Virus record (IMG/VR): IMGVR_UViG_2648501669_000011
Strand: one strand, 5' to 3'
Length of the DNA stretch: 13,928 nucleotides
From: a virus
Lineage: Duplodnaviria > Heunggongvirae > Uroviricota > Caudoviricetes
This document shows, in pieces, positions 108 to 13,928 of the stretch. The notes beneath the pieces are model-generated. The model ran no database searches and was not told the origin of the DNA. It was given only the letters and a program-made list of their open reading frames with translations. Made by a program: the position numbers and the translations under genes. Each line of letters opens with the position of its first letter. Positions within the stretch are counted from its first letter, which is position 1.

Positions 108-192
108 CACGTCAGAGAGGAAATTGTGAGTAGTGAGTACGGAGAAAATCCTCGTGGGAAAGTATAAAAGATTCTTTTTGAGGTTGTCCATT

Positions 193-306: not shown

Positions 307-307
307 T

Positions 308-484: not shown

Positions 485-658
485 TCGCCCGTAAGAGCAG
501 AATATTTTGCTGAAAAATGAGGGGTGCGTCAGCGCACGGAAAGCATGAAATTCTGCGTTTGTGGTTATTCAATAAAATAAATTCTTTCTATCGCCGCGAA
601 TACTCAAATGTTGATCAGTGCCCGGTGCGGCGACAGGCTTCGATATCAGGAGACGATG

Positions 659-1054
659 ATGGAAAAAACAGAAAACAAACCGATTGCAATTGGTGCTGAT
701 GCTGCTCCGTTTAAGTTTGAGTTGTCTCAACTGGTGGAGATGCGCATCAGTGATGAATGGGGTGAGGTTAAAGCCCGCGCGCAGTATGCGTATGGCGAAA
801 ACCAGTACTTGATCCACTACAAAGCAGCTGATGGCCGCGCCACGACGGAGTGGTTTGGTGAGTCAATGCTGGAAGCAACAGAAGATGATCGTCATCCTGG
901 TTGTCCGGTATTTGCCTGCATGAAATTGCCGGAAGGCGCAGTAGTTGAACTGCAGCCGGGTGAGATGTTCGTGATGACAGACATCATTGATGGTAAACCG
1001 CAGTATTCGCGTATTGAAATGAATGGTAAGAGTGCTCGCCTGATTCGTGAGTAA
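659..1054 (+). CDS. hypothetical protein, 131 aa, acidic, no predicted TM segment; possible accessory (moron) gene
   Basis: ORF-track frame 608-1054. AGGAG at 648-652 sits 6 nt before ATG 659 (ATG 656 is too close). Translation begins MEKTENKPIAIGADAAPFKF; stop TAA at 1052-1054. Lies between the left-edge small ORFs and the putative cos/terminase region. No family recognised. Confidence 0.6.
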   Translation: MEKTENKPIAIGADAAPFKFELSQLVEMRISDEWGEVKARAQYAYGENQYLIHYKAADGRATTEWFGESMLEATEDDRHPGCPVFACMKLPEGAVVELQPGEMFVMTDIIDGKPQYSRIEMNGKSARLIRE

Positions 1055-1194
1055 CAGGCATTACAGCAGCTCTTCAGCGAGGGGCTGCGATAATGCAGGT
1101 GTTGGAGTGTATGCAAATGATAATTGCTCCCATTTTCACGGGTCCTTCCTGGAATTTAGAACACCGAGGGGATGCGGATGCGCAGAAAACGGCT

Positions 1195-1345
1195 AGTTTT
1201 TGCATTTTCATGGCGGCGGCAGCATGTGTGATAATTTATTGATAATTAAAAGTTATTTCTGTTTTCACCTGTACAATCTTTTTTCTCTCCTGTCATTAGA
1301 CCAGTTTGTAATTATTTGAAATATATAAATAAATTTGATTTTCAC
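1195..1345. other. candidate cos region (cosN-like GC core plus AT-rich cosB-like segment with an IHF-like site)
   Basis: 310-bp non-coding gap immediately upstream of a lambda Nu1-like terminase gene. GC core CATGGCGGCGGCAGCATG (about 1209-1226) resembles the GGGCGGCGACCT core of lambda cosN and is flanked by AT-rich DNA. The minus strand at 1232-1244 reads TATCAATAAATTA, matching the IHF consensus WATCAANNNNTTR. Positional inference only. Confidence 0.35.
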
Positions 1346-1364
1346 CTGCCGGATGGAGTTGCCT

Positions 1365-1901
1365 ATGTCAAATGTGATTGGGATTGGTGATGCTTATCAC
1401 TGGAGTGTTTTTAAAATCGCCGAGGCTTTTGGGCTTCATCGGGACACAGTAAAAAAACGTCTCCTCGCCGCCAACACTCCTGTGGCTGCAACTGTCAAAG
1501 GAAACCCCGTTTATGCCCTGCAGCATGTCGGACCTGCCCTGTTTGGCCCGAAGCATGAGGTAGCAGACTCTGTTCATGATCCATCCCGGATGGAGCCGAA
1601 AGAGAGGAAGGACTGGTTCCAGTCTGAAAATGAAAGGATCAAGCTGGAAAAGGAACAGCGGAAACTCATCCCTGTCGATGAAGTGGTCATCGTCTATTCA
1701 TCTATGAGAAAGGCTGTCGTTCAGGTTCTGGAGACCATTCCGGATATTCTGGAACGCGATTGCGCCCTGACTCCTCAGGCTGTTGGTGTTGTACAGCAGG
1801 CCATTGATGACCTGCGATATACCCTTCAGGAAAAATCCTACGAGGCCTGTGCTGCTGAATTAATTTCTAATGAGGAAGGGGAGAGTCTCGAGGAGGAATA
1901 A
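1365..1901 (+). CDS. terminase small subunit (lambda Nu1-like, N-terminal helix-turn-helix)
   Basis: GGAG at 1355-1358 then ATG 1365. N-terminus MSNVIGIGDAYHWSVFKIAEAFGLHRDTVKKRLL has an HTH-like layout comparable to the lambda Nu1 N-terminus; acidic C-terminal tail (EEGESLEEE). Stop TAA overlaps the ATG of the large subunit (TAATG at 1899-1903). Confidence 0.75.
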   Translation: MSNVIGIGDAYHWSVFKIAEAFGLHRDTVKKRLLAANTPVAATVKGNPVYALQHVGPALFGPKHEVADSVHDPSRMEPKERKDWFQSENERIKLEKEQRKLIPVDEVVIVYSSMRKAVVQVLETIPDILERDCALTPQAVGVVQQAIDDLRYTLQEKSYEACAAELISNEEGESLEEE

Positions 1902-4015
1902 TGGGTTTTTCATCAGCCCGAAACCTTGGCAGGGACATATCTGCAGGATTTTCCCCACCACGTCGCATGCCGATTTCGGAGGCTGTTAAAAAATTCATGC
2001 GAGTTCCTAAGGGCGCGGGTAACTCAGTGCCATGGGATCCTGAACTGACGCCCTACATTATTGAACCTATGAACTGTTTGGCATCGCGTGAATACGATGC
2101 GGTGATTTTTGTTGGTCCTGCGCGAACAGGGAAGACCATCGGTCTGATCGATGGATGGGTTGTCTATACCATCGTCTGTGATCCTTCGGACATGCTCGTC
2201 GTGCAGATGACCGAAGATAAGGCTCGTGAGCATTCGAAAAAACGGCTCGACAGAACGTTCAGAAGCAGTACAGCGGTAAAGAAAAGAATGAGTCCACGTC
2301 GTAATGACAATAACGTCCATGATAAGACGTTCAAGGATGGCTCATTTCTTAAAATTGGTTGGCCCTCAGTCAATATTATGTCGTCGTCGGATTACCGGTT
2401 TGTTGCCTTAACCGATTACGACCGCTTTCCGGAGAATATCGACGGTGAAGGTGATGGTTTCTCCCTGGCTTCAAAACGTACCACCACATTTATGTCTGCA
2501 GGTATGACGCTGGTGGAGAGTTCCCCTGGACGTGAGATCACAAACAGCAAATGGCGCAGAACGTCACCGCATGAAGCCCCGCCCACCACGGGGATCCTTT
2601 CTCTATATAACCGTGGCGATCGTCGTCGCTGGTACTGGCCCTGCCCAGATTGTGGTGATTATTTCCAGCCATCTATGGAGGCTATGACGGGGTATCGTGA
2701 CAATCCTGATCCTGTAAAAGCCAGTGAAGCGGCTCATATATTATGCCCTCATTGTGGCAACCGAATCACCGCAGACATGAAACGTGAACTGAATGGTCGC
2801 GGCGTCTGGTTGCGTGAAGGTGAGCAGATTGACAGAGAAGGGAATGTTACCGGAACGCCACGTCATTCAAGGATAGCCAGCTTCTGGATGGAAGGCCCCG
2901 CTGCAGCCTATCAGACCTGGGCGCAACTGGTTTACAAACTACTGACTGCTGAGCAGGAATATGAAGCCACAGGCAGTGAGGAAACACTGAAGGCGGTGAT
3001 TAACACCGACTGGGGATTACCTTATTTGCCTCGTTCTGCCATGGAGTTGCGCAGTGCAGATGTCCTGATGCAGCGGGCTGAGGATTACGGTAAGCGCCTG
3101 GTACCGCCGAAAGTGCGTTTTCTTATTGCGGCTGTGGACGTGCAGGGCGGGAAGAACCGACGGTTTGTGGTGCAGATTATTGGCTATGGCGAGGATGGCG
3201 AACGCTGGCTGGTGGACCGTTATAACATCCGACAGTCATTGCGCTGCGATGAAAATGGCGAAGCATTACCTGTGCATCCCGGGGCTTATCCTGAAGACTG
3301 GCAGTTGCTGGTCACCGATGTACTGGAGAAAACGTATCCGCTCCAGTCCGATCCGGCCCGCAGAATGCCTGTACTGGCAATGGCGGTGGACAGTGGTGGT
3401 GAAGACGGGGTGACGGATAACGCCTATAAATTCTGGCGAAAATGTCGTCAGGATGGACTGGGGCGACGGGTTTTTCTGGTAAAGGGAGACAGCACGAAAC
3501 GCCAGAAAATTATCACCATCACACACCCGGATAATACCGGGCGAAGCGATCGCCGTGCGGATGCTCAGGGAAAGGTGCCGGTATATCTCCTGCAGACAGA
3601 CCTGCTGAAAGATCAACTAAGCAATAACCTGCAACGTGAAATGCCCGGACCGGGCTACATTCATTTTCCTGACTGGCTCGGGGAGTGGTTTTATGAAGAG
3701 TTGACCTATGAGGAACGCGGTGCTGACGGGAAATGGCGCAAGCCAGGAAAAGGGAATAACGAAGCATTTGACCTTTTTTGCTATGCCCATGCCGTCGCCA
3801 TTCTGCGTGGCTATGAAAAAATCCGTGACTGGAACAACCCTCCCCAGTGGGCAAGAGGGCAGAATGCTGACGCTGGGGCTTCAGCAGACGGACGTTCTTC
3901 CGGCACAGTGGACAAGAAAAACGTTGCCGGAAGAGATGAGCGGCAAAAAGCAGCATCGTCGGAAGCGTTATCCGGAAACTGGTTATCACTACCCCGAAAC
4001 GGAGGATGGTTGTGA
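1901..4015 (+). CDS. terminase large subunit (lambda gpA family)
   Basis: 704-aa ORF directly coupled to the small subunit, with GAGGAGGAA upstream. P-loop GPARTGKT (2114-2137) near residue 72-79, similar in position to the lambda gpA ATPase motif. CPDCG (2642-2656) and CPHCGN (2744-2761) form a CxxC-X29-CxxC zinc-ribbon-like motif. Size and order match gpA. Confidence 0.85.
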   Translation: MGFSSARNLGRDISAGFSPPRRMPISEAVKKFMRVPKGAGNSVPWDPELTPYIIEPMNCLASREYDAVIFVGPARTGKTIGLIDGWVVYTIVCDPSDMLVVQMTEDKAREHSKKRLDRTFRSSTAVKKRMSPRRNDNNVHDKTFKDGSFLKIGWPSVNIMSSSDYRFVALTDYDRFPENIDGEGDGFSLASKRTTTFMSAGMTLVESSPGREITNSKWRRTSPHEAPPTTGILSLYNRGDRRRWYWPCPDCGDYFQPSMEAMTGYRDNPDPVKASEAAHILCPHCGNRITADMKRELNGRGVWLREGEQIDREGNVTGTPRHSRIASFWMEGPAAAYQTWAQLVYKLLTAEQEYEATGSEETLKAVINTDWGLPYLPRSAMELRSADVLMQRAEDYGKRLVPPKVRFLIAAVDVQGGKNRRFVVQIIGYGEDGERWLVDRYNIRQSLRCDENGEALPVHPGAYPEDWQLLVTDVLEKTYPLQSDPARRMPVLAMAVDSGGEDGVTDNAYKFWRKCRQDGLGRRVFLVKGDSTKRQKIITITHPDNTGRSDRRADAQGKVPVYLLQTDLLKDQLSNNLQREMPGPGYIHFPDWLGEWFYEELTYEERGADGKWRKPGKGNNEAFDLFCYAHAVAILRGYEKIRDWNNPPQWARGQNADAGASADGRSSGTVDKKNVAGRDERQKAASSEALSGNWLSLPRNGGWL

Positions 4016-4230
4016 AAAAAGATGAGATTTTCCAGATGCTGGTTATCGTGCGTCAGGCATACAGGGATTCCCTGGATGGTAAAAGTGTGTCTTTTACCGG
4101 GGTGAATGGCAGGGCGATCACCAACCATGATCCTGTTGCATTGCGCAGGGAACTTGAATACTGGGAAAAACGCTGGGCGGCGGCCTGCCAGCCCACAAGG
4201 AAACCGTACAAACTCGCCCGTTTCTCCTGA
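4012..4230 (+). CDS. head-tail joining / head completion protein (lambda gpW-like)
   Basis: 72-aa ORF between terminase and portal, as lambda W. GGAGG at 4001-4005 sits 6 nt before GTG 4012 (ATG 4006 has no spacer). The start overlaps the terminase stop (GTGA). Similarity to gpW is by size, position and loose pattern only. Confidence 0.55.
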   Translation: MKKDEIFQMLVIVRQAYRDSLDGKSVSFTGVNGRAITNHDPVALRRELEYWEKRWAAACQPTRKPYKLARFS

Positions 4231-4238
4231 GGTTTTTT

Positions 4239-5750
4239 ATGGGTTTTTTTGATAAAGCACTTGGTGCAATTGCGCCAGGGTGGGCAGTTTCGCGCGCCAG
4301 AAACAAAATGCTGCTGAGAGCTTATGAGGCGGCGCAGCCTTCACGCCTGAATAAAGCCCGGCGTGAGAGTCGTTCTGCCGATACAGCAGTTTTTTCTGCC
4401 GGCACTTCGTTAAGGGAGCAGGCCAGGGCGCTGGATGAAGATCATGATATCGTGATTGGTCTGCTGGATAAGCTGGAAGAGCGGGTTATTGGTGCGCAGG
4501 GGATCCAGGTTGAACCACAACCACTGAGAAGCGATGGCACCCTGCATGAATTGCTGGCAGAGCAGATCTCGGCATTGTGGTCTGAATGGTCTGTTCGCCC
4601 TGAGGTCACGGGGATGTTCACTCGCCCGGAGGCCGAACGGATGGCATTGCGATCTGCTTTGCGTGATGGCGAGATGTTCGTACAACTGGTGCGTGGTCCT
4701 GTCGCCGGTCTGAATCATTCCACTGTGGTGCCATTATCACTGGAACTTCTCGAAGCAGATTTTGTTCCGGTCAGTCTGAACACGAACGCGGGTCAGCAAG
4801 TCCGCCAGGGCATTATTCTTAACAACTGGGGGCGGCCTGTAGGGTATCGGGTTTATAAATACCATCCTGCAAATATGCGTGGATTCAGCGCCGATCTCAA
4901 AACTGTTCACGCAGACAACATGCTTCATCTGGCGATGCGGAAACGGCTTCATCAGGTGAGAGGTGTCAGCCTGTTACATGGTGTGATTCGCCGGATTGCT
5001 GATCTGAAAGATTACGAAGAATCAGAGCGTGTGGCTGCCCGTATTGCTGCCGCGCTGGGTTTCTACATTAAGCGTGGTGATGCCGCCAGCTTTCCGACGG
5101 ATAACGACTGGACACCCACAGAACAAAAACCCCGGTACTTTGATATTTCGCCGGGCATGATTTTTGACGAACTGGCCCCCGGTGAAGATCTGGGGATGGT
5201 GGAGTCGAATCGTCCGAATGTTCATCTTTATGAATTCCGGAACGGACAGTTGCGTGCTGTGGCTGCCGGAACCCGTGGCAGTTATTCCAGTATTGCCCGT
5301 GACTATAACGGCTCCTACAGTTCGCAGCGTCAGGAGCTGGTGGAAGGTTACGAAGGCTACGGGGTTTTACAGCAGTGGTTTGTCGGTCAGTACAGCCGCC
5401 CGGTGTACCGGGCATGGCTGGAGCAGGCGATACCTTTTCTTGAAATTCCTCCTGATGTGGATATGTCCACGCTTTTCAATGCCACTTATCTTGGCCCGGT
5501 GATGCCGTGGATTGATCCGGTGAAGGAGGCTGCAGCATGGCGGGCCATTCTTCGCGGTGGTGCCGGGACGGAGGCCGAGTGGATACGTGCCCGTGGGCAG
5601 TCACCGCAGGAGGTCAAACGTCAGCGACTGCGTGAAACTGAATTTAACCGGGAAAACGGGCTGGTGTTCGATTCTGACGCCGCTAACGATAAAGGAGTGA
5701 TCCCTGATGCAGCAAATGATAAACCCGCGTCTTCGCGGGACGATGATTAA
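4239..5750 (+). CDS. portal protein (lambda gpB family)
   Basis: 503-aa ORF in the canonical position after terminase and W; GAGG 6 nt upstream of ATG 4239. Size and composition fit lambda-type portals; acidic C-terminus (SSRDDD). Confidence 0.8.
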   Translation: MGFFDKALGAIAPGWAVSRARNKMLLRAYEAAQPSRLNKARRESRSADTAVFSAGTSLREQARALDEDHDIVIGLLDKLEERVIGAQGIQVEPQPLRSDGTLHELLAEQISALWSEWSVRPEVTGMFTRPEAERMALRSALRDGEMFVQLVRGPVAGLNHSTVVPLSLELLEADFVPVSLNTNAGQQVRQGIILNNWGRPVGYRVYKYHPANMRGFSADLKTVHADNMLHLAMRKRLHQVRGVSLLHGVIRRIADLKDYEESERVAARIAAALGFYIKRGDAASFPTDNDWTPTEQKPRYFDISPGMIFDELAPGEDLGMVESNRPNVHLYEFRNGQLRAVAAGTRGSYSSIARDYNGSYSSQRQELVEGYEGYGVLQQWFVGQYSRPVYRAWLEQAIPFLEIPPDVDMSTLFNATYLGPVMPWIDPVKEAAAWRAILRGGAGTEAEWIRARGQSPQEVKRQRLRETEFNRENGLVFDSDAANDKGVIPDAANDKPASSRDDD

Positions 5751-7797
5751 TCCCCGCGCCAGCCTTGCGGGGGTGGATGCCGCTAATGGTCAGTGCTGGT
5801 ATGAAATCCGTGCACAGACTGCCGGGCGGGTGGAAATTTACCTCTATGACGTGATTGGCGGATGGGGCATCACCGCGCAGCAGTTTATTGCTGACTGTAA
5901 GGATGCGGGGGTGTTTGAGGCCAGCGCTATTGATCTGCATATCCACAGCCCGGGCGGTGATGTGATGCAGGGGTTTGCCATCTTTAACACGCTGTCACGG
6001 CTGAAAGCGAAGGTGGATATCTGGGTGGATGGTGTTGCAGCCAGCATGGCCTCCATGATTGTCTGCCTGCCTGGCGCCACAGTGCATATGCCTGAAAATT
6101 CCTGGCTGATGATACACAAGCCGTGGGGCGGGATCGCCGGTGATTCCGATGATATGCGTGATTATGCTGACTGGCTGGATCGCAACGAGGCGCTGATGCT
6201 GTCAGCCTACATGAATAAAACCGGACTCGGGCAGGAGGAGCTGGAAGCCATGCTGAAAGCAGAAACCTGGCTGAACGGTGCTGAAGCTGTGGAAAAAGGC
6301 TTCGCTGATACGCTTGAACCTGAATTACAGGCTGCGGCCTGTGTGAACCAAAATAAACTGAAGGATTACCATAATATGCCAGAACAGATTAACGCGCTTT
6401 TTGCTCCACGTGCAGAAACGACAAACGGACAGCCGCAGGAGCCGAAAGCAACCCCGCAAAATGCGCAACAGATCGCTGCTCAGCAGGCACCATCAACCGG
6501 AAATGTGGATATCAGCGCAATTGCTTCGCAGGTTCAGCAACAACTGATGGCAGCCAATGCGGAACGTGTGCAGGCTGTAACCGCAGTTTTTGCCTCTTTC
6601 CCGTCTTATGCCGCACTGAAAGCGGAGTGTCTGAACGACATGACCTGTACGGAAGCACAGGCCCGTGAAAAACTGTTGCAGGCGCTGGCAGCCGGAACGA
6701 CACCAAGTGCAGGCCCGGGCGCTGTTCATATTCATGCCGGGAACGGTAATCTGGTCGGCGATTCCATTCGTGCGGCTGTGATGGCACGCGCCGGATATGC
6801 CGAAGCAGAAAAAGATAATGCTTATAACGGTTTTACACTGCGCGAGCTGGCGCGTGCTTCGCTGGTTGATCGCGGTATCGGTATCTCCGGTCATTCCGCA
6901 CCGATGGCGATGGTGGGGCTGGCATTTACTCACAGCAGCAGCGATTTCGGCAATATCCTGATGGATGTGGCTCATAAAGCTGCGTTGCAGGGCTGGGATG
7001 ATGCCAGCGAAAATTTTGACAAATGGACCCGCAAGGGAACGCTGACTGATTTTAAAACCGCGCATCGTGTCGGGCTGGAAACTTTCCCGACGCTACGAAA
7101 AGTATTGCCGGGGGCTGAATATAAATATGTGACCCTGAAAGATCGTGGCGAACCGATTGCACTGGCGACTTATGGCGAATTGTTCAGCATTGATCGCCAG
7201 ACCATCATCAATGATGACCTGGATATGCTGACCCGTATTCCGATGGCAATGGGGGCGGCAGCGCGGACTACCGTGGGGGATCTGGTCTGGGCCGTGCTGA
7301 CCAGCAATCCGAAAATGTCGGATGGCAAACCGCTGTTCCATGCAGATCATGGCAACCTGGTGACTGCCGATTTGTCTATTGAGGGGCTGGATTCCGGGCG
7401 TAAAGCCATGCTGCTCCAGAAATCGGGTGACCGTCGCCTGAACATTCGTCCTGCTTTTATGTTGACGCCTGTTGCCATTGAGTCGCGTGCCAATCAGTTG
7501 ATTAAGTCTGCCAGCGTGCCTGGTGCAGATGCGAACAGCGGCATTATTAACCCGATTCAGAATTTTGCCACGGTTCTGTCAGAGGCCCGTCTTGATGACA
7601 GCAGCCCGACGGATTATTACCTGGTGGCAGCGCAGGGGCGTGACACGATTGAAGTGGCTTACCTCGACGGTATTGATACGCCGTATCTGGAGCAGCAACA
7701 GGGCTTTACGGTTGATGGTGCAGCATTCAAGGTGCGCATTGATGCCGGAGTGGCACCGCTTGACTGGCGTGGCATGGTCAAAGTGAAAAAACAATAA
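5707..7797 (+). CDS. three-part head gene: ClpP-like prohead protease, Gln/Ala-rich scaffold-like linker, C-terminal major capsid domain (Gifsy-2 type)
   Basis: 696-aa ORF. N-terminal third carries ClpP catalytic signatures: AASMAS (Ser codon 6043-6045, compare E. coli ClpP AASMG) and MIHKPWGG (His codon 6115-6117, compare MIHQPLGG). Residues about 224-330 are low-complexity Q/A/P-rich. No separate capsid gene of about 340 aa follows, so the C-terminal 370 aa is inferred to be the capsid protein. Start is ambiguous (ATG 5707 with GGAG at 5694-5697; in-frame ATGs at 5716 and 5743). Confidence 0.7.
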   Translation: MQQMINPRLRGTMINPRASLAGVDAANGQCWYEIRAQTAGRVEIYLYDVIGGWGITAQQFIADCKDAGVFEASAIDLHIHSPGGDVMQGFAIFNTLSRLKAKVDIWVDGVAASMASMIVCLPGATVHMPENSWLMIHKPWGGIAGDSDDMRDYADWLDRNEALMLSAYMNKTGLGQEELEAMLKAETWLNGAEAVEKGFADTLEPELQAAACVNQNKLKDYHNMPEQINALFAPRAETTNGQPQEPKATPQNAQQIAAQQAPSTGNVDISAIASQVQQQLMAANAERVQAVTAVFASFPSYAALKAECLNDMTCTEAQAREKLLQALAAGTTPSAGPGAVHIHAGNGNLVGDSIRAAVMARAGYAEAEKDNAYNGFTLRELARASLVDRGIGISGHSAPMAMVGLAFTHSSSDFGNILMDVAHKAALQGWDDASENFDKWTRKGTLTDFKTAHRVGLETFPTLRKVLPGAEYKYVTLKDRGEPIALATYGELFSIDRQTIINDDLDMLTRIPMAMGAAARTTVGDLVWAVLTSNPKMSDGKPLFHADHGNLVTADLSIEGLDSGRKAMLLQKSGDRRLNIRPAFMLTPVAIESRANQLIKSASVPGADANSGIINPIQNFATVLSEARLDDSSPTDYYLVAAQGRDTIEVAYLDGIDTPYLEQQQGFTVDGAAFKVRIDAGVAPLDWRGMVKVKKQ

Positions 7798-7800
7798 ATA

Positions 7801-7824
7801 ACCGCCGGACAGGGCGGTTTTTTT
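7801..7824 (+). terminator. intrinsic terminator / attenuator just downstream of the capsid gene
   Basis: ACCGCC (7801-7806) pairs with GGCGGT (7813-7818) around loop GGACAG, followed by a 7-T run (7818-7824), 4 nt after the TAA stop at 7795-7797. Confidence 0.6.
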
Positions 7825-7869
7825 ATGGCTGAAGCGGCGCACTTTGCGCCGCATTTACCGGAGAAAAAA

Positions 7870-8199
7870 ATGTCAAAAAATTTTGTTCAGGACGGAAAAA
7901 ACGTCGACTGGCTGAACGGGACCGGAAAGGCGGTGTCATCTGGCGATCTGGTTGTTCAGGATAATCTTGTTGGTGTTGCTCACGCTGATATTCCGGACGG
8001 GGATGTGGGCATTCTGCATACGGTGGGGGTTTTCTCTTTGCCTAAAGAGGCAGAGGCGCTGACGCAAGGCAGGCTGGTGTATTTCAAAGCGGATACGGCA
8101 ACACTGACTGCAACGAAATCAGGTAATACGCTGGTGGGAACAGTATGGGCATCGGCTGAAGCCGGAGATGCCTGTGTTTGTGTGCGTCTGGGGTACTGA
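7870..8199 (+). CDS. head decoration / capsid cement-like protein (DUF2190-like, about 109 aa)
   Basis: GGAG at 7860-7863 sits 6 nt before ATG 7870. Translation MSKNFVQDGKNVDW...SGDLVVQDNLVGVAHADIPDGDVGILHTVGVFSLPKEAEALTQGRLVYF...GNTLVGTVWA fits the pattern I recall for DUF2190 proteins that follow capsid genes. Size is close to lambda gpD. Confidence 0.6.
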   Translation: MSKNFVQDGKNVDWLNGTGKAVSSGDLVVQDNLVGVAHADIPDGDVGILHTVGVFSLPKEAEALTQGRLVYFKADTATLTATKSGNTLVGTVWASAEAGDACVCVRLGY

Positions 8200-8555
8200 T
8201 GCATCGATTTTATAAACGGCTGATGCGGGCAGATGCCCGCATTTCCCGGCTTTTTTCCGAGGAGTGTCCGGCGATACTGTCTATTGGCAGTGAGCGTCGC
8301 CCTGTTATGGTGATTTTTGAATCTCCGGATGCGCCGGTTCGTGTTCCGGGGGGTGGAGAAATTAACGATCAGGCTCCGGCATTCAGCGCACTGACAGAGG
8401 ATATTAAGGGGCTCAGCACAAACTGCGCAGTGGAGCTGAACCACGAATTTTACCGCGTCACGCATATTGGTGCGGATGAAATGGGGCGTACACGCGTAAC
8501 GCTCGGGCGTGGACGGGGGACGTCATTACCGACCATCGAATGGAGTAAAAAATAA
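8199..8555 (+). CDS. putative head-tail connector / head completion protein (118 aa)
   Basis: ATG 8199 overlaps the previous stop (TGATG). Position between decoration gene and tail genes. Translation begins MHRFYKRLMRADARISRLF. Function inferred from position only. Confidence 0.5.
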   Translation: MHRFYKRLMRADARISRLFSEECPAILSIGSERRPVMVIFESPDAPVRVPGGGEINDQAPAFSALTEDIKGLSTNCAVELNHEFYRVTHIGADEMGRTRVTLGRGRGTSLPTIEWSKK

Positions 8556-8576
8556 ACTTCATAAGGAGATATCGCA

Positions 8577-9260
8577 ATGGCGCGGGCATCACGCATCCGG
8601 CGAAATCTGTTGTTTGATATCGACGTCGAAGAATTGCGGGATATTGCGGCGCAGGCTGGTGCAACGCAGCACCAGTTCCGTCTGGCCTATTCCCGCGCAC
8701 TGAAGCGAACGGCATCAAAAATGCGCATGAAGGCGCTTGCGGAACTGAAAACCGGCCTGGCTCCCCGCAAAATGGACACACTGGACAGGCGGCTTTTTTC
8801 CACCCGCATTACCCGGGGTAATGCTATGGATGAAGCCCGTCTCTGGTTTGGCCTTAATGCGATCAAGATAAAAGATTTGCGCGGACGCATTCGTGGGCAA
8901 CGTGTCCGGCGTCATGATCTCCGTGATCCGGTAACCGGGCGGTTTATCAAAGAGAACCGTGTCCGGCGACGTCGCCGCAAAGCCAGCGATCCCGTTTTTG
9001 AACCCAACGGTTCGTTTTTATCTCCTGCCGCGTATGAAAACGGGCTGGTGATACGTAGTCGCAAAGAGAACCGACGAACAATCATCATCAAAAATCCTGA
9101 AACCGGGCGTGTCCGGGAGGCTGAAGCTGGTATTTATGCCAGCACGATGGATTATGTTGAAGATGTGGCTTTTGCGGAGTGCCTGGAAATTTTTATGAAA
9201 GAGTTCGAATCGGACATCCGGCGACGCGCGAAGTACGGCATTACCGTGGCCCCCCGATAA
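8577..9260 (+). CDS. Arg-rich basic virion morphogenesis protein (227 aa), function unknown
   Basis: AAGGAG at 8563-8568 sits 8 nt before ATG 8577. Highly basic, including RVRRRRRKASD. Lies between head and tail modules; no family recognised. Confidence 0.55.
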   Translation: MARASRIRRNLLFDIDVEELRDIAAQAGATQHQFRLAYSRALKRTASKMRMKALAELKTGLAPRKMDTLDRRLFSTRITRGNAMDEARLWFGLNAIKIKDLRGRIRGQRVRRHDLRDPVTGRFIKENRVRRRRRKASDPVFEPNGSFLSPAAYENGLVIRSRKENRRTIIIKNPETGRVREAEAGIYASTMDYVEDVAFAECLEIFMKEFESDIRRRAKYGITVAPR

Positions 9261-9274
9261 AATGTGAGGACGCA

Positions 9275-9844
9275 ATGGCTGAACCCTTATGCATGGCATC
9301 CTGGCACGCTGCTGTGCTGGATACCCTGAAAAAACTTAAATGGATCAATGATGCGGACACCTATCCGGAACGGGTCACGCAACTGGTCACTCCGGCGGTG
9401 TTTCTGGCGGTGGATGGCTGGGATGCGAAAAGCAATGCAGACGGGCAGATGACGGTGGTGTTGTCTGCCGCGCTGTGGGTACTGGTTGACCGTGCCGGTG
9501 AGCCGGATAAAGAAAAAAAAGAAGAACGCAGGGCGATAAAGCCGGATATTTTTATCCGTTCGGCGGCCGCCGCGTTGTCGCACTGGCTCGACGGGCAGAC
9601 GTTCGGACTGGCAAATGTGGAGCCTGCCATTTTTATATCAGCGGACGCAGATGAAACCGATCCGCGTCTGGATGATTATCTGGTCTGGCAGATTTCATTT
9701 AACCAGACGGTGACGTTTGGTATGGATCCCTTTGCCACGGATAACCTGCCGTTACAGCGGGCCTGGCTGGGCGTGGCACCGGAGATCGGGCGACAGCATG
9801 TGGATGATTATCGGCTGATTTTTGAGGGAAAGCCACGTGAATGA
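9275..9844 (+). CDS. putative tail completion / neck protein (189 aa)
   Basis: GAGG at 9266-9269 sits 5 nt before ATG 9275. Translation begins MAEPLCMASWHAAVLDTLKKLKW. Stop TGA at 9842-9844 overlaps the next gene's start. Functional call is positional. Confidence 0.5.
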   Translation: MAEPLCMASWHAAVLDTLKKLKWINDADTYPERVTQLVTPAVFLAVDGWDAKSNADGQMTVVLSAALWVLVDRAGEPDKEKKEERRAIKPDIFIRSAAAALSHWLDGQTFGLANVEPAIFISADADETDPRLDDYLVWQISFNQTVTFGMDPFATDNLPLQRAWLGVAPEIGRQHVDDYRLIFEGKPRE

Positions 9845-10457
9845 GGTTCTGGGGGATTTACAGCGTCGCCTGGCAAATATGGTCCGGCGTGGGGTGATCC
9901 ACTCGGTGCGGCTGGACGGTGGTTTTCCGGAATGCCGCGTGGATCTGGGGGATATTGTGACCACCTGGCTGCCATTGTGTCAGGGTTTTGCCGGGAAAAA
10001 CCGGGCAGATTTTGAGCCGTTTGCTGTGGGCGATGCGGTCACGGTACTGTCAGAGGCCGGGGAGCTGAATAACGGTCGTGTTTTTCCCGGCTGGAATACC
10101 GGTGAGGCACCGGCTCCGCAGGGCAGCGACAGTGAGCACATCACCCGTTACGGAGATGGCACGGAAATTTGCTATAACCGGGAGACGCACTCACTGACCA
10201 TTATTCTGGCGGAAGGGGGCACCTATGCCATTACCGGGAATGGTGTGCTGGACGGAAACGTCATGATCTCAGAAGACCTGATCGTGAACGGACGCACGAT
10301 GGTTGAAGGTGAAGTGGTGGTGAAAAGTGATTTTTATGCAAAAGGCGAGGTGACGGATAAATCCGGTAGCATGAGCCGGATCCGGGAAACGTTTAATGGA
10401 CACGACCATCCCGGAGACAGTGGGGGAACCACGAAAGTACCGAATCAGAAAATGTGA
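9837..10457 (+). CDS. baseplate central spike / assembly protein (P2 gpV / Mu gp45 family-like)
   Basis: GAGG at 9825-9828 sits 8 nt before GTG 9837. N-terminus VNEVLGDLQRRLANMVRRGVIHSV, internal TTWLP and AVGDAVTVLSEAGELNNGRVFPGW, and C-terminal HDHPGDSGGTT (10401-10433, an HxH motif) match my recollection of gpV-type spikes. Same size class as P2 gpV. Confidence 0.6.
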   Translation: MNEVLGDLQRRLANMVRRGVIHSVRLDGGFPECRVDLGDIVTTWLPLCQGFAGKNRADFEPFAVGDAVTVLSEAGELNNGRVFPGWNTGEAPAPQGSDSEHITRYGDGTEICYNRETHSLTIILAEGGTYAITGNGVLDGNVMISEDLIVNGRTMVEGEVVVKSDFYAKGEVTDKSGSMSRIRETFNGHDHPGDSGGTTKVPNQKM

Positions 10458-10495
10458 CCTGCTGCGGCAGGTTTTTTTATGTCCGGAGAATGCAA

Positions 10496-11956
10496 ATGGG
10501 GCAATTACATGGTGTGGAAACCATCGAGCTGACAGCAGGCACGGTGGCAGTAACCACAATAGAGACAGCCATTATTGGTGTGGTGGGAACCGCGCCGCAG
10601 GCTGCCGGAGCTGTGGCAGCGACACTGACAGCGGGAACGCCGCTGCTGGATAACGAGCTGACCTTTACGGCAAAAGCGGGGGGACGGAGCGGAAATACCA
10701 TTACCGTTATTGCTGAACAGGCTGTCAAAGAAAAAAGTGCGGGTGCGGTTCCCACGTCAGCAAAATGGGAAAACGGAAGCCTGTTGATTTGGCTTGGATG
10801 CAGTGAAGAGGGGGCAGGCAATGCCACCGTCAGTGATGTTGTGACGGCGGTGAATGGTGTGGCGGGGGCCGGGGTGAGTGCCACCGGCAGCGGTGACGGT
10901 ATTGTGTCGCCGTTTTCCGGCACACTGAGTGGCGGTGAAGATGAACCGTTTCCGCTGAACACGCCAGTGGCGATGGCGGGAACAACGGCGCTTTCACGTC
11001 TGGGGATCACCGGAACACTGAAGCAGGCGCTGACGGAGATTAACGACCAGCGTAACGCGCTGTCGGTGATCGTCCGGGTGGAAGAAAAAACGAAGCCGGA
11101 AGAGCAGCGTGCTGCCATTCTTGCGGGGATCAGCATGCTGTCATCGGCAAAATCCGTCACCACGTATCAGCCACGTATTGTGATTGCACCAGGATTCAGT
11201 GAAGACGATGCGGTGGGTAAGGCACTGGAAACGGTGGCCGGAAAACTGCGTGCAGTGGCGTACGTGGATTGTGCTGCGGGCGCGACACTGCAGGATGTGG
11301 TGCAGCGTCGCCAGTCTTACGGTGCCAGGACTGAATTACTGCGCCCGCGTGTGCAGGTCAGTAATGCAGAGGGGCAACTGGTGTATCGCCCGTATTCGGC
11401 CTTTGCTGCCGGACTGCGTGCCCGTATTGACTATGAAAAAGGGTGGTGGTGGAGCAAATCAAACCAGGAGGTTTACAACATCCTCGGTGTTGAGCAGGTG
11501 GATGAATTTATCCTCGGTGAGCGCAACTGTGATGCCAACCTGCTTAATATGCAGAATGTCTCCACCCTGATTCGCCGCGCCGGATTTAAACACTGGGGAA
11601 ACCGTCTGTGCTCGTCCCATCCCCAGTGGCATTTCGAGTCCGTCCGCCGTACTGCGGATGTGATTGAAGACAGTATTCAGGAGGCGATGCTGGCGTATGT
11701 TGACCGCCCGCTCGATCGCCAGAATGCGGACGATATCATCGGCACCATTAATGCGTATATGCGCCGTCTGGTGGCAGAAGGGGCCATCTTCGGGGGGCGG
11801 GCATGGCTGGATCCGGAACTGAATACCGCCGAAACACTGGCAGCCGGGGAACTGTACATCAACTATGACTTCGGTCCCAAATCGCCGACGGAACTTATCA
11901 GCATGCGGGTGAGCGTCAACAACGAATACGGCATTAAGGAGATGACGGCAACATGA
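10496..11956 (+). CDS. contractile tail sheath protein (P2 FI / Mu L family)
   Basis: GGAG at 10485-10488 sits 7 nt before ATG 10496. N-terminus MGQLHGVETIELTAGTVAVTTIETAIIGVVGTAP and C-terminal motifs GWWWSK, TLIRRAGFKHWGNRLCS, AETLAAGELYINYDF parallel P2 FI as I recall it. 486 aa. Confidence 0.8.
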   Translation: MGQLHGVETIELTAGTVAVTTIETAIIGVVGTAPQAAGAVAATLTAGTPLLDNELTFTAKAGGRSGNTITVIAEQAVKEKSAGAVPTSAKWENGSLLIWLGCSEEGAGNATVSDVVTAVNGVAGAGVSATGSGDGIVSPFSGTLSGGEDEPFPLNTPVAMAGTTALSRLGITGTLKQALTEINDQRNALSVIVRVEEKTKPEEQRAAILAGISMLSSAKSVTTYQPRIVIAPGFSEDDAVGKALETVAGKLRAVAYVDCAAGATLQDVVQRRQSYGARTELLRPRVQVSNAEGQLVYRPYSAFAAGLRARIDYEKGWWWSKSNQEVYNILGVEQVDEFILGERNCDANLLNMQNVSTLIRRAGFKHWGNRLCSSHPQWHFESVRRTADVIEDSIQEAMLAYVDRPLDRQNADDIIGTINAYMRRLVAEGAIFGGRAWLDPELNTAETLAAGELYINYDFGPKSPTELISMRVSVNNEYGIKEMTAT

Positions 11957-12459
11957 GCAGCAAAAACACATTACGCGCCTGGACTTTTTTCCGCCAGGGG
12001 ATCCGTATTCAGGGAGCGCATGAGTTCACGCCCCCCACGCTGTCCATAACCACCACTGATTTACGCACCGGGGCACAGGATGCCCCCACGCCGGTTGACG
12101 ACGGCATGGAGGCGCTGACCTGCCAGATTAAATTCTATGGTCTGGATACAGACATGCTGTCCAGTCTCGGATTTGTCAGTGGCAACCGCTCCCGCTTCAC
12201 GGCCTATCAGGGTTATCTGGCAAACGGCACCGCGCTGGGGACCACCGAAGAAATCGAAGGTTTTGTGAAAACGGTGACGCCGGATGCACGTGGAAACAGC
12301 AGCCTGTCAGAAAATGCGGTGACAGTGGAAATCGCGGTGAATTATTACCGTCAGACGCTGGAGGGGATCGAACTCATTATGATTGATACCGAGCGTTTCG
12401 AGCGTCGGATCAACGGTGTGAATGTACTTGCCGGTCTGTCGGCAAAAGTGCGTCTCTGA
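11953..12459 (+). CDS. tail tube protein (P2 FII / Mu M family)
   Basis: ATG 11953 overlaps the sheath stop (ATGA). 168 aa, immediately after the sheath gene. C-terminus YYRQTLEGIELIMIDTERFERRINGVNVL resembles the P2 FII C-terminus. Confidence 0.75.
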   Translation: MSSKNTLRAWTFFRQGIRIQGAHEFTPPTLSITTTDLRTGAQDAPTPVDDGMEALTCQIKFYGLDTDMLSSLGFVSGNRSRFTAYQGYLANGTALGTTEEIEGFVKTVTPDARGNSSLSENAVTVEIAVNYYRQTLEGIELIMIDTERFERRINGVNVLAGLSAKVRL

Positions 12460-12469
12460 TTAACACATA

Positions 12470-12492
12470 ACGGCCTGCGGGCCGTTTTTTTT
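12470..12492 (+). terminator. intrinsic terminator / attenuator between tube and chaperone genes
   Basis: CGGCC (12471-12475) pairs with GGCCG (12480-12484) around loop TGCG, followed by an 8-T run (12485-12492). AAGGAG for the next gene follows directly. Confidence 0.55.
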
Positions 12493-12504
12493 AAGGAGCA
12501 GATT

Positions 12505-12804
12505 ATGAATATTCCGGGCGAAACCCGCACCATCACACTGTACACGCCGGTCACTCTGGGAGGCGGGGCTGTGCTGGAACGCATCACCATGCGCGAACCG
12601 CTGGTGCGCGATCGCATTGCCTTCACCAAAGACCGGGGAACAGAAGAGGAAAAAGAGGCGCGTATGATTGCGCAGCTTTGTAATCTGAGTGAGCAGGATA
12701 TCTGGCTGCTGACCGCAGCGGATTATGCCCAGCTGACGGATGCCTTTAATGTTTTTATGCTGCCACCCGGGAAGCGACCGAAACCGAAATCTTCAGAGGG
12801 TTAA
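12505..12804 (+). CDS. tail assembly chaperone (P2 gpE-like), zero-frame product
   Basis: AAGGAG at 12492-12497 then ATG 12505. 99 aa (MNIPGETRTITLYTPVTLGG...MREPLVRDRIAFTKDRGTEEEKE) between tube and tape measure genes, as for P2 E. Confidence 0.7.
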   Translation: MNIPGETRTITLYTPVTLGGGAVLERITMREPLVRDRIAFTKDRGTEEEKEARMIAQLCNLSEQDIWLLTAADYAQLTDAFNVFMLPPGKRPKPKSSEG

Positions 12805-12932
12805 GGTTTCTCGGGCGGCGGCTGCATTTTCCTCTTTCCGATTATCTGTCCATGCCGTTCAGTGTGTTTACGGCATTTTTACTGGATGAAGTGGAGGCAG
12901 TAAAACGTGGGAAGCGTAAGCCAGAATCTTAA
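12505..12932 (+). CDS. predicted -1 frameshift product of the tail chaperone (gpE+E'-like, about 142 aa)
   Basis: The -1 frame is open only from 12750 (TAA at 12747-12749) to TAA at 12930-12932. A T5 run (12752-12756) sits at the start of that window, where tRNA-Phe on TTT 12754-12756 can re-pair at 12753-12755. The extension overlaps the tape measure start by 26 nt. Confidence 0.5.
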
Positions 12933-13928
12933 GGCTACCGTGTCGTTCGGGGGCAAACTGGACAGTTCGTGGTGCCGTTCGGCGACGGATCTGCGAAAAA
13001 ATTTGCAGGATGTGGAGCAGCAGGCTGCGCGTTTACGTAAGGAGCAGGCAGAGCTGGCAGCAGAAATGAAGCGGGCGGCGCTGGCAGGGAAGCGTTTTAA
13101 GTCGATGGAGGATGAATACGCCCGGCTCACTGCTGAAATTAAGAAAGCGGATGCGGCCCAGAAAAAACTGAACCGGAGCCTTGAGCGTCGCGATCGGCTC
13201 GGACGTTTTATGGGCAAAGGAAAAAGCCTGCTTGCCGGAACCGGCAAATTTGCCTGGAATGCCGGTCTGGCGATGGGAGGCGGGGCCGTGACCACGGCGC
13301 TTGGTGCGCTGATTGCTCCGGCTGCCATGAATGCGCAGACGGCTGAAACAGCGGGTAAAGCGACTGCGTATGGCGTGGATACCCGCACGTACATGAACTG
13401 GGACGCCCTGGCAAAACAGTACGATATGACCGGCGATAATATCGGGGATCTGTTTGAGGAATACCTGCATAAGGCCGGGGAATATAAACAAAATGGCAAG
13501 CAGAGTTCGCTTTCTGACGCCTTTGAAACGCTGGGATTTGAGGAAGGCGATCTTGCCGGACTGAGTGATAAGGAACAGTTCGAAAAAATTATCGACAGGG
13601 CGCTGTCACTGAAGGATGAATCAAAGGCATCGTTTGCGCTGGATGCATTGTTTGGTGGTGAAGCCAGTAAACTGCTGATGCTGATCAAACGTTCTGGAAA
13701 AAGTTTTCAGGAACTGCTGGCTGAGCAGGATAAATATAACCTGGTGACAAAAGAGGGTGTGGCTGGCGCACTCGCCGGAAACAAGGCTGTTTCTGATTTG
13801 CAGCAGGTTTTTTCTTCTGCGGTTGCAGAAATTTCCGGACAACTGGGCGCAGAGCTGGCCCCCGCCATACAAGAGACAGCGGGTGACCTGGCAGAGTGGT
13901 TTAAAGGCGGAGGCATTAAAAAGGTTGT
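12907..13928 (+). CDS. tail tape measure protein, N-terminal part (3' end beyond window)
   Basis: GGAGG at 12892-12896 sits 10 nt before GTG 12907. The frame is open for more than 340 codons to the window end, alpha-helical, Ala/Lys/Glu-rich, in the position expected after the chaperone genes. Missing from the ORF track because no stop lies in the window. Confidence 0.75.
   Translation, partial: MGSVSQNLKATVSFGGKLDSSWCRSATDLRKNLQDVEQQAARLRKEQAELAAEMKRAALAGKRFKSMEDEYARLTAEIKKADAAQKKLNRSLERRDRLGRFMGKGKSLLAGTGKFAWNAGLAMGGGAVTTALGALIAPAAMNAQTAETAGKATAYGVDTRTYMNWDALAKQYDMTGDNIGDLFEEYLHKAGEYKQNGKQSSLSDAFETLGFEEGDLAGLSDKEQFEKIIDRALSLKDESKASFALDALFGGEASKLLMLIKRSGKSFQELLAEQDKYNLVTKEGVAGALAGNKAVSDLQQVFSSAVAEISGQLGAELAPAIQETAGDLAEWFKGGGIKKV

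Follow-up and report, generated by a model that had tools for sequence, protein, structure and literature searches.

Four copies of the octamer GCTGGTGG, the Chi sequence, lie on the + strand in the head genes of this phage element, and the question is whether they serve recombination by RecBCD or simply follow from the codons of genes that all read rightward. We recounted exact matches in the whole window, by which we mean the entire 13,928-nt stretch analysed here, and found the four octamers where the original prediction had placed them (Table 1): two in the gene for the large terminase, one in the portal gene and one in the gene for the head cement protein. Its statement that the - strand carries no Chi was also borne out, as the reverse complement, CCACCAGC, had no match on the + strand. 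The reading frame is identical in all four cases, nnG-CTG-GTG-Gnn, with Leu-Val encoded by the two central codons, and the density is one Chi per 3.5 kb of window. All four are genuine Chi sequences set in Leu-Val codons, and RecBCD action on them is putative.

Table 1. Chi octamers, probable cos and genes in the window
Feature	Position	Strand	Location, codons or evidence
Probable cosN, left end of virion genome	1169..1180	.	Homology to the starts of the Tritos and cdtI records
Small terminase subunit (DUF1441)	1401..1901	+	Pfam PF07278, E = 1e-44; RefSeq annotation of L001
Large terminase, lambda gpA type (ATPase and endonuclease domains), with Chi 1 and Chi 2	1901..4015	+	Pfam PF05876, E = 7e-81; PF20454, E = 1e-88
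Chi 1	2509..2516	+	Large terminase; codons ACG CTG GTG GAG (T-L-V-E); Chi starts at third codon position
Chi 2	3208..3215	+	Large terminase; codons TGG CTG GTG GAC (W-L-V-D); frame as in the other three
Lambda-family portal, with Chi 3	4239..5750	+	Pfam PF05136, E = 5e-89
Chi 3	5336..5343	+	Portal; codons GAG CTG GTG GAA (E-L-V-E); frame as in the other three
ClpP-like prohead protease fused to major capsid protein, 0 Chi	5707..7797	+	Pfam PF00574, PF25209; RefSeq annotation
Head cement/decoration protein (DUF2190), with Chi 4	7870..8199	+	Pfam PF09956, E = 8e-27
Chi 4	8130..8137	+	Head cement/decoration protein (DUF2190); codons ACG CTG GTG GGA (T-L-V-G); frame as in the other three
Head-tail joining and contractile-tail genes (baseplate V, sheath, tube, chaperone, start of tape measure)	8199..13928	+	

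The window belongs to a temperate prophage of enterobacteria with cos packaging and a lambda-like organisation. Prophages in three E. coli chromosomes match 90-92% of its length at 95-97% identity; the host is thus presumably enteric, with a RecBCD that recognises GCTGGTGG. Cos packaging is indicated by the gpA-type large terminase. The records of the phages Tritos (linear) and cdtI both start with GGGCGGGAGCGT, their position 13 aligns to position 1181 of the window, and window positions 1169-1180 read GGGATGCGGATG. If these records start at a physical end, cos probably lies at about 1169-1180, just left of the terminase genes and close to the position near 1210 that had been proposed before. 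The cohesive-end sequence of lambda, GGGCGGCGACCT, was searched for as a cos marker and none was found, and cos was placed via the starts of Tritos and cdtI instead. An exact 17-base motif beside cos (start at 1191) is absent from three complete relatives, the prophages L001, L089 and L090, so the segment with cos and the small terminase differs from theirs. Every gene in the window reads rightward, and the GC skew is positive along its entire length; an ORF on the - strand (7983-8465) was mis-called by greedy both-strand ORF picking and is a shadow ORF. The joining and tail genes of the window contain no Chi on either strand.

How many Chi should such a stretch contain by chance? With equiprobable bases, 0.21 Chi are expected per strand, which is the figure of 0.2 used in the original prediction. 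The surprise drawn from it was overstated, because the codon-aware expectation for the + strand is higher and in enterobacterial DNA a Chi turns up about every 5 kb anyway. Dinucleotide shuffles gave a mean of 0.80 Chi on both strands combined, with at least four in 4 of 200 shuffles. Strand-specific Markov models of orders 0 to 4 predicted 0.42, 0.59, 1.20, 2.57 and 2.09 Chi on the + strand and 0.13-0.29 on the - strand. When protein sequence and codon usage were preserved, shuffles gave 1.19-1.75 Chi on the + strand, with a probability of 0.03-0.07 for four or more; on the - strand 0.01-0.11 were expected and the probability of finding none was 0.89-0.99. An analytic expectation from the amino acid sequence and codon usage came to 1.34-1.59 for the window, the lower value with + strand ORFs only, as used for all late-arm expectations below, and the similar, higher value with greedy both-strand ORF picking. 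The observed count is thus about 2.3-3.4 times the codon-aware expectation. As many as 79 octamers, Chi among them, occur at least four times on the + strand of the window, the commonest with seven copies. The count is real, yet only marginally above codon-aware expectation. The strand bias is a different matter: since every gene of the window points rightward, the exclusive + orientation is a coding-strand effect, and zero Chi on the - strand is fully expected from the 0.01-0.11 given above. The caveat about a coding-strand effect that had accompanied the prediction was right and proved decisive here. The codon-preserving shuffle proposed with it as a control reproduces the all-plus pattern but gives a lower count (1.2-1.75 versus 4).

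The host chromosome provides a second baseline. With the same model, genes of the E. coli chromosome had observed-to-expected ratios (O/E) of 2.3 (coding strand) and 3.1 (template strand), at one Chi per 5.1 kb. The O/E of the window, about 2.5-3, is similar to that of ordinary E. coli genes, and the count is about host-like. Chromosomal Chi and the phage sites share the octamer, a comparable density, a comparable two- to threefold excess over codon-aware expectation, the predominant frame through CTG and, once the prophage is integrated, co-orientation with the leading strand. They differ in that the phage sites sit on a mobile element, in which cos cleavage and rolling-circle tails also create entry points for RecBCD, and in that the family-wide excess of the phages lies above the host control. 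Chi on one strand of a co-directional gene block is therefore no evidence by itself; the baseline is the codon-aware expectation together with the Chi density of the host.

That family-wide excess became apparent in the late arms of the relatives. Counting related loci as independent, we found 112 Chi versus 26.7 expected in 37 Enterobacterales relatives and, counted in the same way, 16 versus 3.3 in Morganellaceae, which corresponds to an O/E of 4.2-5 for the family. Bottom-strand Chi in these arms numbered 2 versus 5.5 expected. The other 15 octamers of the form XCTGGTGY had O/E values of 0.67-1.99, compared with 4.2 for Chi, and the 24 one-mismatch variants of Chi gave a pooled O/E of 1.33. 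The excess in the relatives is specific to the Chi octamer, with no near-variant above twofold. It also persisted when the three recurrent sites were taken out (roughly 70 Chi remaining versus 19 expected). A preference for the CTG-GTG codon pair was rejected as the whole cause for the family, as enrichment is not seen in the other 15 XCTGGTGY octamers; for the four sites of the window taken alone, it may still be the cause.

Conservation of the individual sites was uneven. The column of Chi 1, at TLVE of the terminase, reads as Chi in 21 sequences, that is, the window and 20 homologous loci. Among amino-acid-compatible loci it was Chi in 13 of 35 Enterobacterales (1.81 expected) and in 5 of 12 Morganellaceae (0.21 expected), and by excess codon retention TLVE ranked 2nd of 365 conserved tetrapeptide columns. 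At Chi 3 in the portal, the residues ELVE are kept in nearly all homologues; the codons formed Chi in 18 of 36 Enterobacterales (2.75 expected), in 6 of 12 Morganellaceae (0.33 expected) and in none of 17 Pasteurellales, and the column ranked 1st of 347 by observed minus expected counts. Chi 2, at WLVD of the terminase, was present in 11 of 15 amino-acid-compatible Enterobacterales loci (2.91 expected) and ranked 14th of 365 by observed minus expected and 36th by ratio; Tritos and cdtI have ATT ATT in this column and no Chi. Chi 4 was poorly conserved: 2 of 32 Enterobacterales homologues were amino-acid-compatible, one of them with Chi, and the site looks lineage-specific. Synonymous divergence is near saturation (median third-position identity, 0.34), and selection on synonymous codons seems to maintain three of the four head-gene Chi site by site. 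A further-reaching proposal is that the Chi at terminase TLVE and portal ELVE are old and position-specific, are held by synonymous-codon selection from Escherichia to Proteus, and that homologous modules retune Chi according to the RecBCD of their host lineage; we put it forward tentatively and with somewhat less than even confidence. The late arms of phages with Pasteurellaceae hosts are enriched for GTTGGTGG (pooled, 28 versus 6.1 expected), which agrees with the Chi consensus of Haemophilus, GNTGGTGG, and would mean that Chi was retuned to the RecBCD of the host lineage. Two control octamers are also raised in Pasteurellales (CTTGGTGG, 12 versus 3.5; CTTGGTGC, 8 versus 1.7). The presence of GTTGGTGG at the portal ELVE codons of Pasteurellales was considered as exceptional and discarded: it ranked 56th of 244 by observed minus expected, and many columns there are equally conserved. 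A switch to a Haemophilus-type octamer in Pasteurellaceae is possible, with the pooled 28 versus 6.1 as its one basis.

Whole-element counts came from the three complete relatives, which share about 97% identity with the window where the two align and have 12/3, 10/2 and 11/3 Chi on the top/bottom strand at a density of one Chi per 2.7-3.4 kb. Their gene order is int/xis, early-left operon, repressor and cro-like gene, replication, Q antiterminator, lysis, cos and terminase, head and tail; this is a lambdoid organisation, although the tail is contractile, unlike that of classical lambdoids. Six to eight of the 10 to 12 top-strand Chi lie in the early arm, left of cos on the prophage map. Co-oriented Chi had been expected in the rest of the element, and beyond the late arm the three relatives indeed add 6-8 top-strand versus 2-3 bottom-strand sites. 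Pooled Chi density in the relatives is highest, at 8.0 per 10 kb, in the stretch 2-4 kb upstream of the terminase gene, near the right end. Among the top-strand octamers of L001, Chi is the commonest, with 12 copies; the entire late arm of L001 has 4 versus 1.9 expected, and its whole tail module (14.8 kb) has none versus 1.34 expected. Two Chi of L001 lie outside coding strands: that at 1768 is intergenic, and that at 2357 falls within a leftward gene, on its template strand. The free phages Tritos and cdtI have 9/2 and 12/5 Chi. They are the closest sequenced free phages, yet their late arms contain only one and no Chi, respectively, and all four sites of the window are missing; the head-gene Chi are therefore not required.

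The early regions of the relatives bear on whether such an element would need host RecBCD. The early-left operon of L001 encodes Int, Xis, an 823-amino-acid protein with a DnaQ-like 3'-5' exonuclease domain, a DUF1482 protein and DicB. A Pfam scan of eight ORFs in the early-left region of L001, which divergent inhibitors could escape, detected none of the Gam, Abc2, Bet, RecT and Erf families, and the RefSeq annotation of the three relatives contains no RecBCD inhibitor of the Gam/Abc2 type. In both L001 and L089 the operon is of the Tritos type, with the nuclease only. The relatives combine the late arm of the window with two or more distinct early regions. Its own early region lies outside the window, and we infer from the relatives that the element would lack a RecBCD inhibitor.

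Chi-rich phages of this kind are known. Bobay (2013) described an Inh- class of lambdoid phages, rich in Chi and without a RecBCD inhibitor, saw phages and prophages alike, and found Chi avoided where an inhibitor is encoded. Zheng et al. (2025, PMC12315714) distinguished the Chi-rich lambdoids without inhibitor as classes A and B, with the prototypes LLS, Gifsy-1 and Tritos; class B, of which Tritos is the prototype, is defined as 'nuclease only, no anti-RecBCD' and has 7-21 top-strand Chi. Membership in class A/B or Inh- is gauged by at least 4 and typically at least 8 top-strand Chi and by at most 6 on the bottom strand; the relatives, with 12/3, 10/2 and 11/3, lie within these limits, and the share of the window is 4/0. 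Counts of 10-12 top-strand and 2-3 bottom-strand Chi are the signature of lambdoid phages and prophages without a RecBCD inhibitor. The relatives also resemble these classes in their lambda-like gene order and their cos terminase, and may do so in the higher Chi density toward the right end and in lacking Gam and Abc2, neither of which was detected; they differ in the contractile tail (sheath, tube and baseplate), where a lambda-type siphovirus tail is found in the others. With Tritos, L001 shares the layout of the early-left operon; the window, by contrast, has four head-gene Chi versus one and none in the entire late arms of Tritos and cdtI. The pattern matches the Chi-rich lambdoids without RecBCD inhibitor already described by Bobay (2013) and Zheng et al. 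(2025). Chi is absent from wild-type lambda (Zheng et al. 2025, PMC12315714), as the original prediction had said. In the chi+ mutants of lambda (red gam background), the octamer is the same and its activity is likewise tied to orientation relative to cos, but there Chi is a laboratory mutation in a phage that goes without it because of Gam and Red, whereas the sites of the window are natural, multiple and conserved in relatives. Phage P1 also has many Chi (one per 1.9 kb), with Chi as its most frequent octamer, as in L001, and depends on host RecBCD/RecA; it is unrelated, packages by headful and circularises by recombination between terminal repeats.

Top-strand 5'-GCTGGTGG-3' is active on RecBCD that enters the right end of a lambda-type genome, and Chi-stimulated RecBCD recombination has been proposed to aid the formation of packageable concatemers (Zheng et al. 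2025, PMC12315714). With cos at the left and the terminase genes reading rightward, the earlier assignment of the active orientation to RecBCD from the right end agrees with this rule: approach from the 3' side holds for entry from the right and does not hold for the nearby left end. On this basis we lean slightly towards the view that the four sites would be the left-arm share of an element-wide, co-oriented Chi set in a phage without RecBCD inhibitor, with a role in RecBCD-dependent recombination. In the steps, which are taken from published work on lambda and LLS, host RecBCD would enter a free double-strand end at the right, for example the cos end on that side once terminase has freed it, a rolling-circle tail or a break, and would move leftward, degrading DNA. 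On meeting a top-strand Chi it would switch to a RecA-loading form, and phage DNA would be spared and recombined into the concatemers required for packaging. The four head-gene Chi themselves would seldom act, because the right entry point is about 33-40 kb away and, in relatives, 6-8 other Chi in active orientation come first; they may be back-up sites, far from where RecBCD enters. In the integrated prophage, the Chi orientation would equal the leading-strand polarity of the host and might serve repair of the host fork as well.

This last point leads to the alternative that we regard as unlikely but by no means negligible, namely that an integrated prophage merely shares the selection, mutation and codon-context biases of the chromosome and thereby acquires host-like Chi density and polarity for fork repair, with no adaptation of the phage. 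The O/E and density of the window are indeed near those of the host control. The three relatives are inserted at three different sites (ompW, ydfJ and beside prfC), and in all three the top strand is, by synteny with the K-12 map, presumably the leading strand. Orientation does not separate selection at the level of the phage from that at the level of the host, since both predict the same strand and all three relatives are co-oriented with replication. Cryptic prophages should, moreover, gain Chi as the chromosome does, as noted by Zheng et al. (2025). The density in the complete relatives and the family O/E, however, both exceed the host control, and free, active phages show the same pattern (LLS and others in Zheng et al. 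2025; Tritos and cdtI with the counts given above). A purely chromosomal process would also not predict the avoidance of Chi where an inhibitor is encoded, nor does it sit well with the equality of phages and prophages (Bobay 2013).

We consider it rather improbable that the four sites are under no selection at all and reflect Leu-Val dipeptides in a fitting context, the preferred codons CTG and GTG, a G-rich coding strand and sampling chance in 14 kb. All four sites share the single frame favoured by codon usage, 3-7% of the codon-aware shuffles reach four where 1.2-1.75 are expected, Markov orders 3-4 predict 2.1-2.6, many other octamers are as frequent, the GC skew is positive throughout, and the site at 8130 is not conserved. 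Chance of this kind is hard to reconcile with the relatives, in which octamers with the CTG-GTG core and other flanks are not enriched while Chi is 4.2-fold, in which TLVE and ELVE keep their Chi-forming codons far more often than equally conserved tetrapeptides keep theirs, and in which Chi also occurs elsewhere in the element, including the intergenic and template-strand sites of L001. Chi attenuates degradation of linear DNA by RecBCD in vivo and the orientation is right for entry at the right end, but the original proposal that the four sites shield the packaged genome after injection, taken here to mean the linear form before the cos ends join, is very improbable, as they lie 1.3-7 kb from the left end, for entry at which they are inactive, and about 33-40 kb from the right end, with the 6-8 other active Chi of the relatives ahead of them, and as the literature prefers recombination toward packageable concatemers.

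As a discovery, the co-oriented Chi carry little weight: their abundance in lambda-like phages and prophages with no inhibitor of RecBCD has been on record since 2013, with an experimental test in 2025. Published work covers genome-wide counts and clustering, and conserved orthologous Chi codons and host-specific retuning do not appear in it. If these side observations survive a phylogeny-aware test, they would provide a read-out, in sequence, of the host recombination system to which a phage module has adapted.

The window is from a temperate enterobacterial phage and forms its left arm of late genes, with head and tail genes in the order listed in the table. Prophages in three E. coli chromosomes matched it with 95-97% identity over 90-92% of its length, and its terminase region was ~82% identical to that of phages Tritos and cdtI. 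The records of both phages start 12 bases ahead of the base aligned to window position 1181; judged from this alignment, the cohesive end (cos) probably lies at about 1169-1180, close to the position near 1210 that had been proposed. The segment from 1100 to 1970 with cos and the small terminase gene is Tritos/cdtI-like (~82% identity from 1181), the main 97%-identity alignment with L001, the prophage inserted at ompW, begins at 1967 and leaves this segment out, and the exact 17-base motif adjoining cos (starting at 1191) was found in none of the three prophages. These observations suggest a probable recombination junction close to the 5' end of the gene for the large terminase. At the other end of the window, the -1 frame of the tail assembly chaperone gene is open onward to a stop at 12930-12932 and overlaps the tape-measure gene where it begins (GTG, 12907). 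Tail chaperones usually have a programmed-frameshift extension, such as E/E' of P2 and G/GT of lambda, and the extended frame looks like a candidate for one; no slippery site was identified in it (12505-12932).

Features of the window and Chi sites in the DUF968 gene of related elements
Element	Feature	Coordinates	Strand	Basis
Window	Small terminase, DUF1441	1401-1901	+	Pfam
Window	Large terminase, lambda gpA-type, ATPase and endonuclease domains	1901-4015	+	Pfam
Window	Portal, lambda-family	4239-5750	+	Pfam
Window	ClpP protease fused to major capsid protein	5707-7797	+	Pfam
Window	Head cement protein	7870-8199	+	Pfam
Window	Head-tail joining, then contractile tail: baseplate V, sheath, tube, chaperone, start of tape measure	3' of cement gene		
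Window	Tail assembly chaperone gene	12505-12804		
Window	Chaperone gene together with its candidate -1 frame extension	12505-12932		
Window	Chi, read as T-L-V-E (terminase)	2509	+	
Window	Chi, read as W-L-V-D (terminase)	3208	+	
Window	Chi, read as E-L-V-E (portal)	5336	+	
Window	Chi, read as T-L-V-G (cement protein)	8130	+	
L001	Chi in DUF968 gene	13349/13882/13934		
L089	Chi in DUF968 gene	11472/11529/12068/12120		
L088 (Tritos)	Chi in DUF968 gene	38644/38702/39108/39160		

Chi (GCTGGTGG), the octamer recognised by enteric RecBCD, was found exactly four times in the 13,928 bases, and its reverse complement was absent from the + strand; the original prediction was thus exact in every coordinate. 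All four copies are read in a common frame, nnG-CTG-GTG-Gnn, encoding Leu-Val, and therefore the choice of the null model is critical. Equiprobable bases gave 0.21 copies on either strand, dinucleotide shuffles gave 0.80 with both strands pooled (at least four in 4 of 200 shuffles), and strand-specific Markov models of orders 0 to 4 gave 0.42, 0.59, 1.20, 2.57 and 2.09 on the + strand and 0.13-0.29 on the - strand. Three shuffles keeping the protein sequence and/or codon usage gave 1.19-1.75 on the + strand and 0.01-0.11 on the - strand, with a probability of 0.03-0.07 for at least four on the former and of 0.89-0.99 for none on the latter. The predicted chance level of about 0.2 per strand therefore held for equiprobable bases, but not for the + strand once codons were taken into account. 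The count is ~2.3-3.4 times the expectation of these shuffles, which is of borderline significance, and Chi is one of 79 octamers with at least four copies on the + strand. Since next to no Chi is expected on the - strand, the strand asymmetry is a plain product of coding sequence on one strand, as had been cautioned for part of the bias; codon shuffling reproduced the bias but gave a lower count. GC skew was positive in every 1 kb window from 1 to 13500 (0.04-0.22), consistent with the all-+ genes and the leading-strand orientation of the related prophages, and by arithmetic this skew alone predicts a roughly threefold + over - bias for an octamer of composition G5C1.

When the same analytic expectation model was run on 200 kb of E. 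coli chromosome, Chi was found at 2.3 times expectation on coding strands and 3.1 times on template strands, at a density of one per 5.1 kb compared to one per 3.5 kb in the window; under the model of Bobay, Touchon and Rocha (2013), the observed/expected ratio in E. coli K-12 is 2.29. Thus, the Chi content of the window is essentially host-like and only marginally significant inside the window. Selection at the level of the host could explain such a content, and orientation cannot separate it from selection on the phage: by synteny with the K-12 map, the top strand is the leading strand in all three prophages, which is the host's preferred Chi polarity. However, Chi is in greater excess across the family, free phages show the same pattern, and phages that encode the RecBCD inhibitors Gam or Abc2 have been reported to avoid Chi (Bobay et al. 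2013); these findings favour a contribution from selection on the phage.

Chance and codon usage by themselves are a tenable explanation for the four sites of the window, but not for the family. In 80 loci encoding large-terminase homologues, with Chi expected per 12 kb late arm from each locus's own protein sequences and codon usage, the + strand carried 112 Chi (26.7 expected) in Enterobacterales other than Morganellaceae, 16 (3.3) in Morganellaceae and 5 (1.8) in Pasteurellales, in pooled tests that count related sequences as independent. On the bottom strand of the non-Morganellaceae Enterobacterales, 2 were observed versus 5.5 expected. The late-arm excess is specific to the Chi octamer, the 24 one-mismatch variants pooled giving an observed/expected ratio of 1.33. 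A general preference for the codon pair CTG-GTG does not account for it, since the other 15 XCTGGTGY octamers reached only 0.67-1.99. Within 10 kb upstream of the terminase gene, 167 Chi were found on the top and 44 on the bottom strand, with density highest (8.0 per 10 kb) in the bin 2-4 kb upstream, near the virion genome's right end.

Three of the four window sites were also Chi at the matching codons of distant relatives. At the TLVE column of the terminase, Chi was present in 13 of 35 Enterobacterales loci with compatible amino acids (versus 1.81 expected) and in 5 of 12 from Morganellaceae (versus 0.21), at the WLVD column in 11 of 15 compatible loci (versus 2.91) and at the ELVE column of the portal in 18 of 36 Enterobacterales (versus 2.75) and 6 of 12 Morganellaceae (versus 0.33). 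To control for shared ancestry, these columns were ranked against every other conserved tetrapeptide column of the same alignments. TLVE ranked 2nd of 365 in the terminase, where the rank-1 column overlaps the same Chi, and ELVE ranked 1st of 347 in the portal, at a family median synonymous third-position identity of only 0.34. Site 8130 was not conserved among homologues, and none of the four is present in Tritos or cdtI. These data speak for genuine selection on Chi in the lineage of this phage, although the pooled tests count related sequences as independent.

Co-oriented Chi, looked for in the rest of the element, were indeed present in all three complete relatives, with 12 top- and 3 bottom-strand copies in L001, 10 and 2 in L089 (at ydfJ) and 11 and 3 in L090 (beside prfC); in each, 4 of the top-strand Chi fall in the late arm and the remaining 6-8 in the early one. 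Chi is the commonest top-strand octamer of L001, and some of its top-strand copies lie off the coding strands, at 1768 (intergenic) and 2357 (within a leftward gene). The whole late arm of L001 has 4 Chi (1.9 expected). The 7-kb head module has 4 versus 0.55 expected, in contrast to the tail module, in which no Chi was found on either strand in window 8200-13928 or in the 14.8 kb of L001 26500-41300 (1.34 expected; not significant alone); the tail module may have a different evolutionary origin. Nearly the same late arm (~96-97% identity) lies inside ompW, inside ydfJ and beside prfC, and has at least two kinds of early region attached to it, one Tritos-like with a 3'-5' exonuclease (L001, L089) and one cdtI-like with yfdP, yfdQ and yfdR (L090). 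By sequence comparison, this is clear modular mosaicism, with a lambda-type head and a contractile tail, and because one late arm is paired with different early regions, we can only infer the recombination genes of the window's own element from its relatives. The early-left operon of L001, laid out like that of Tritos, encodes int and xis, a protein of 823 residues that contains a DnaQ-like 3'-5' exonuclease domain, and also DUF1482 and DicB; the operon showed no match to the Gam, Abc2 or annealing-protein families. Upstream of the Q antiterminator lies a DUF968 (YdfU-like) gene, which has top-strand Chi near its 5' end and, ~500 bases further downstream, a conserved bottom-strand pair exactly 52 bases apart. 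This arrangement is common to the otherwise diverged L001, L089 and Tritos, and the pair makes up most of their Chi in the inactive orientation.

In Pasteurellales late arms (loci L044-L074), GTTGGTGG was found 28 times versus 6.1 in the codon-aware expectation (4.6-fold), whereas Enterobacterales late arms had 9 versus 12.3 (0.73-fold), that is, no enrichment. The octamer fits GNTGGTGG, the Haemophilus influenzae Chi consensus as cited in PMC8022716, and several Pasteurellaceae portals have GAG TTG GTG GAG at the ELVE codons (window 5333-5344), which contain Chi in the window. The signal is not as clean as that of enteric Chi: two control octamers were raised too, for example CTTGGTGG (12 versus 3.5), and the ELVE column was not exceptional among Pasteurellales columns. 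Host-specific retuning of the Chi octamer is possible.

The Chi pattern of the window and its relatives matches, as far as sequence can tell, a described class, the lambdoid phages without a RecBCD inhibitor. Such phages over-represent Chi ~2.5-3 fold, concentrated between replication origin and cos (Bobay et al. 2013). Zheng et al. 2025 (PMC12315714) isolated phage LLS, in which 20 of 23 Chi are in the active orientation and whose growth is enhanced by RecBCD; they classified 314 enterobacterial lambdoid genomes and found that phages lacking either a Rec module or an anti-RecBCD function usually have many top- and few bottom-strand Chi, frequently in a cluster at the right end. For their "nuclease only, no anti-RecBCD" type, which has 7-21 top-strand Chi, Tritos serves as the prototype. 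In the mechanism proposed from the literature, RecBCD would enter at a free end lying right of the Chi sites and move leftward, top-strand Chi would switch the enzyme from degrading DNA to loading RecA, and the resulting recombination would aid formation of the concatemers needed by the terminase. That + strand Chi are active for entry from the right, as originally predicted, agrees with the rule stated explicitly by Zheng et al. Protection of the genome after injection by these four sites, also proposed, is not the favoured mechanism. They are farthest from the right-hand entry, in the relatives they sit behind 6-8 other active-orientation Chi, and RecBCD entering from the left end beside them would meet them in the inactive orientation; therefore, they are back-up sites at best. 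The Chi sites are part of a real, previously described phenomenon, to which position-specific Chi conservation and possible host-specific retuning add only mildly new leads.
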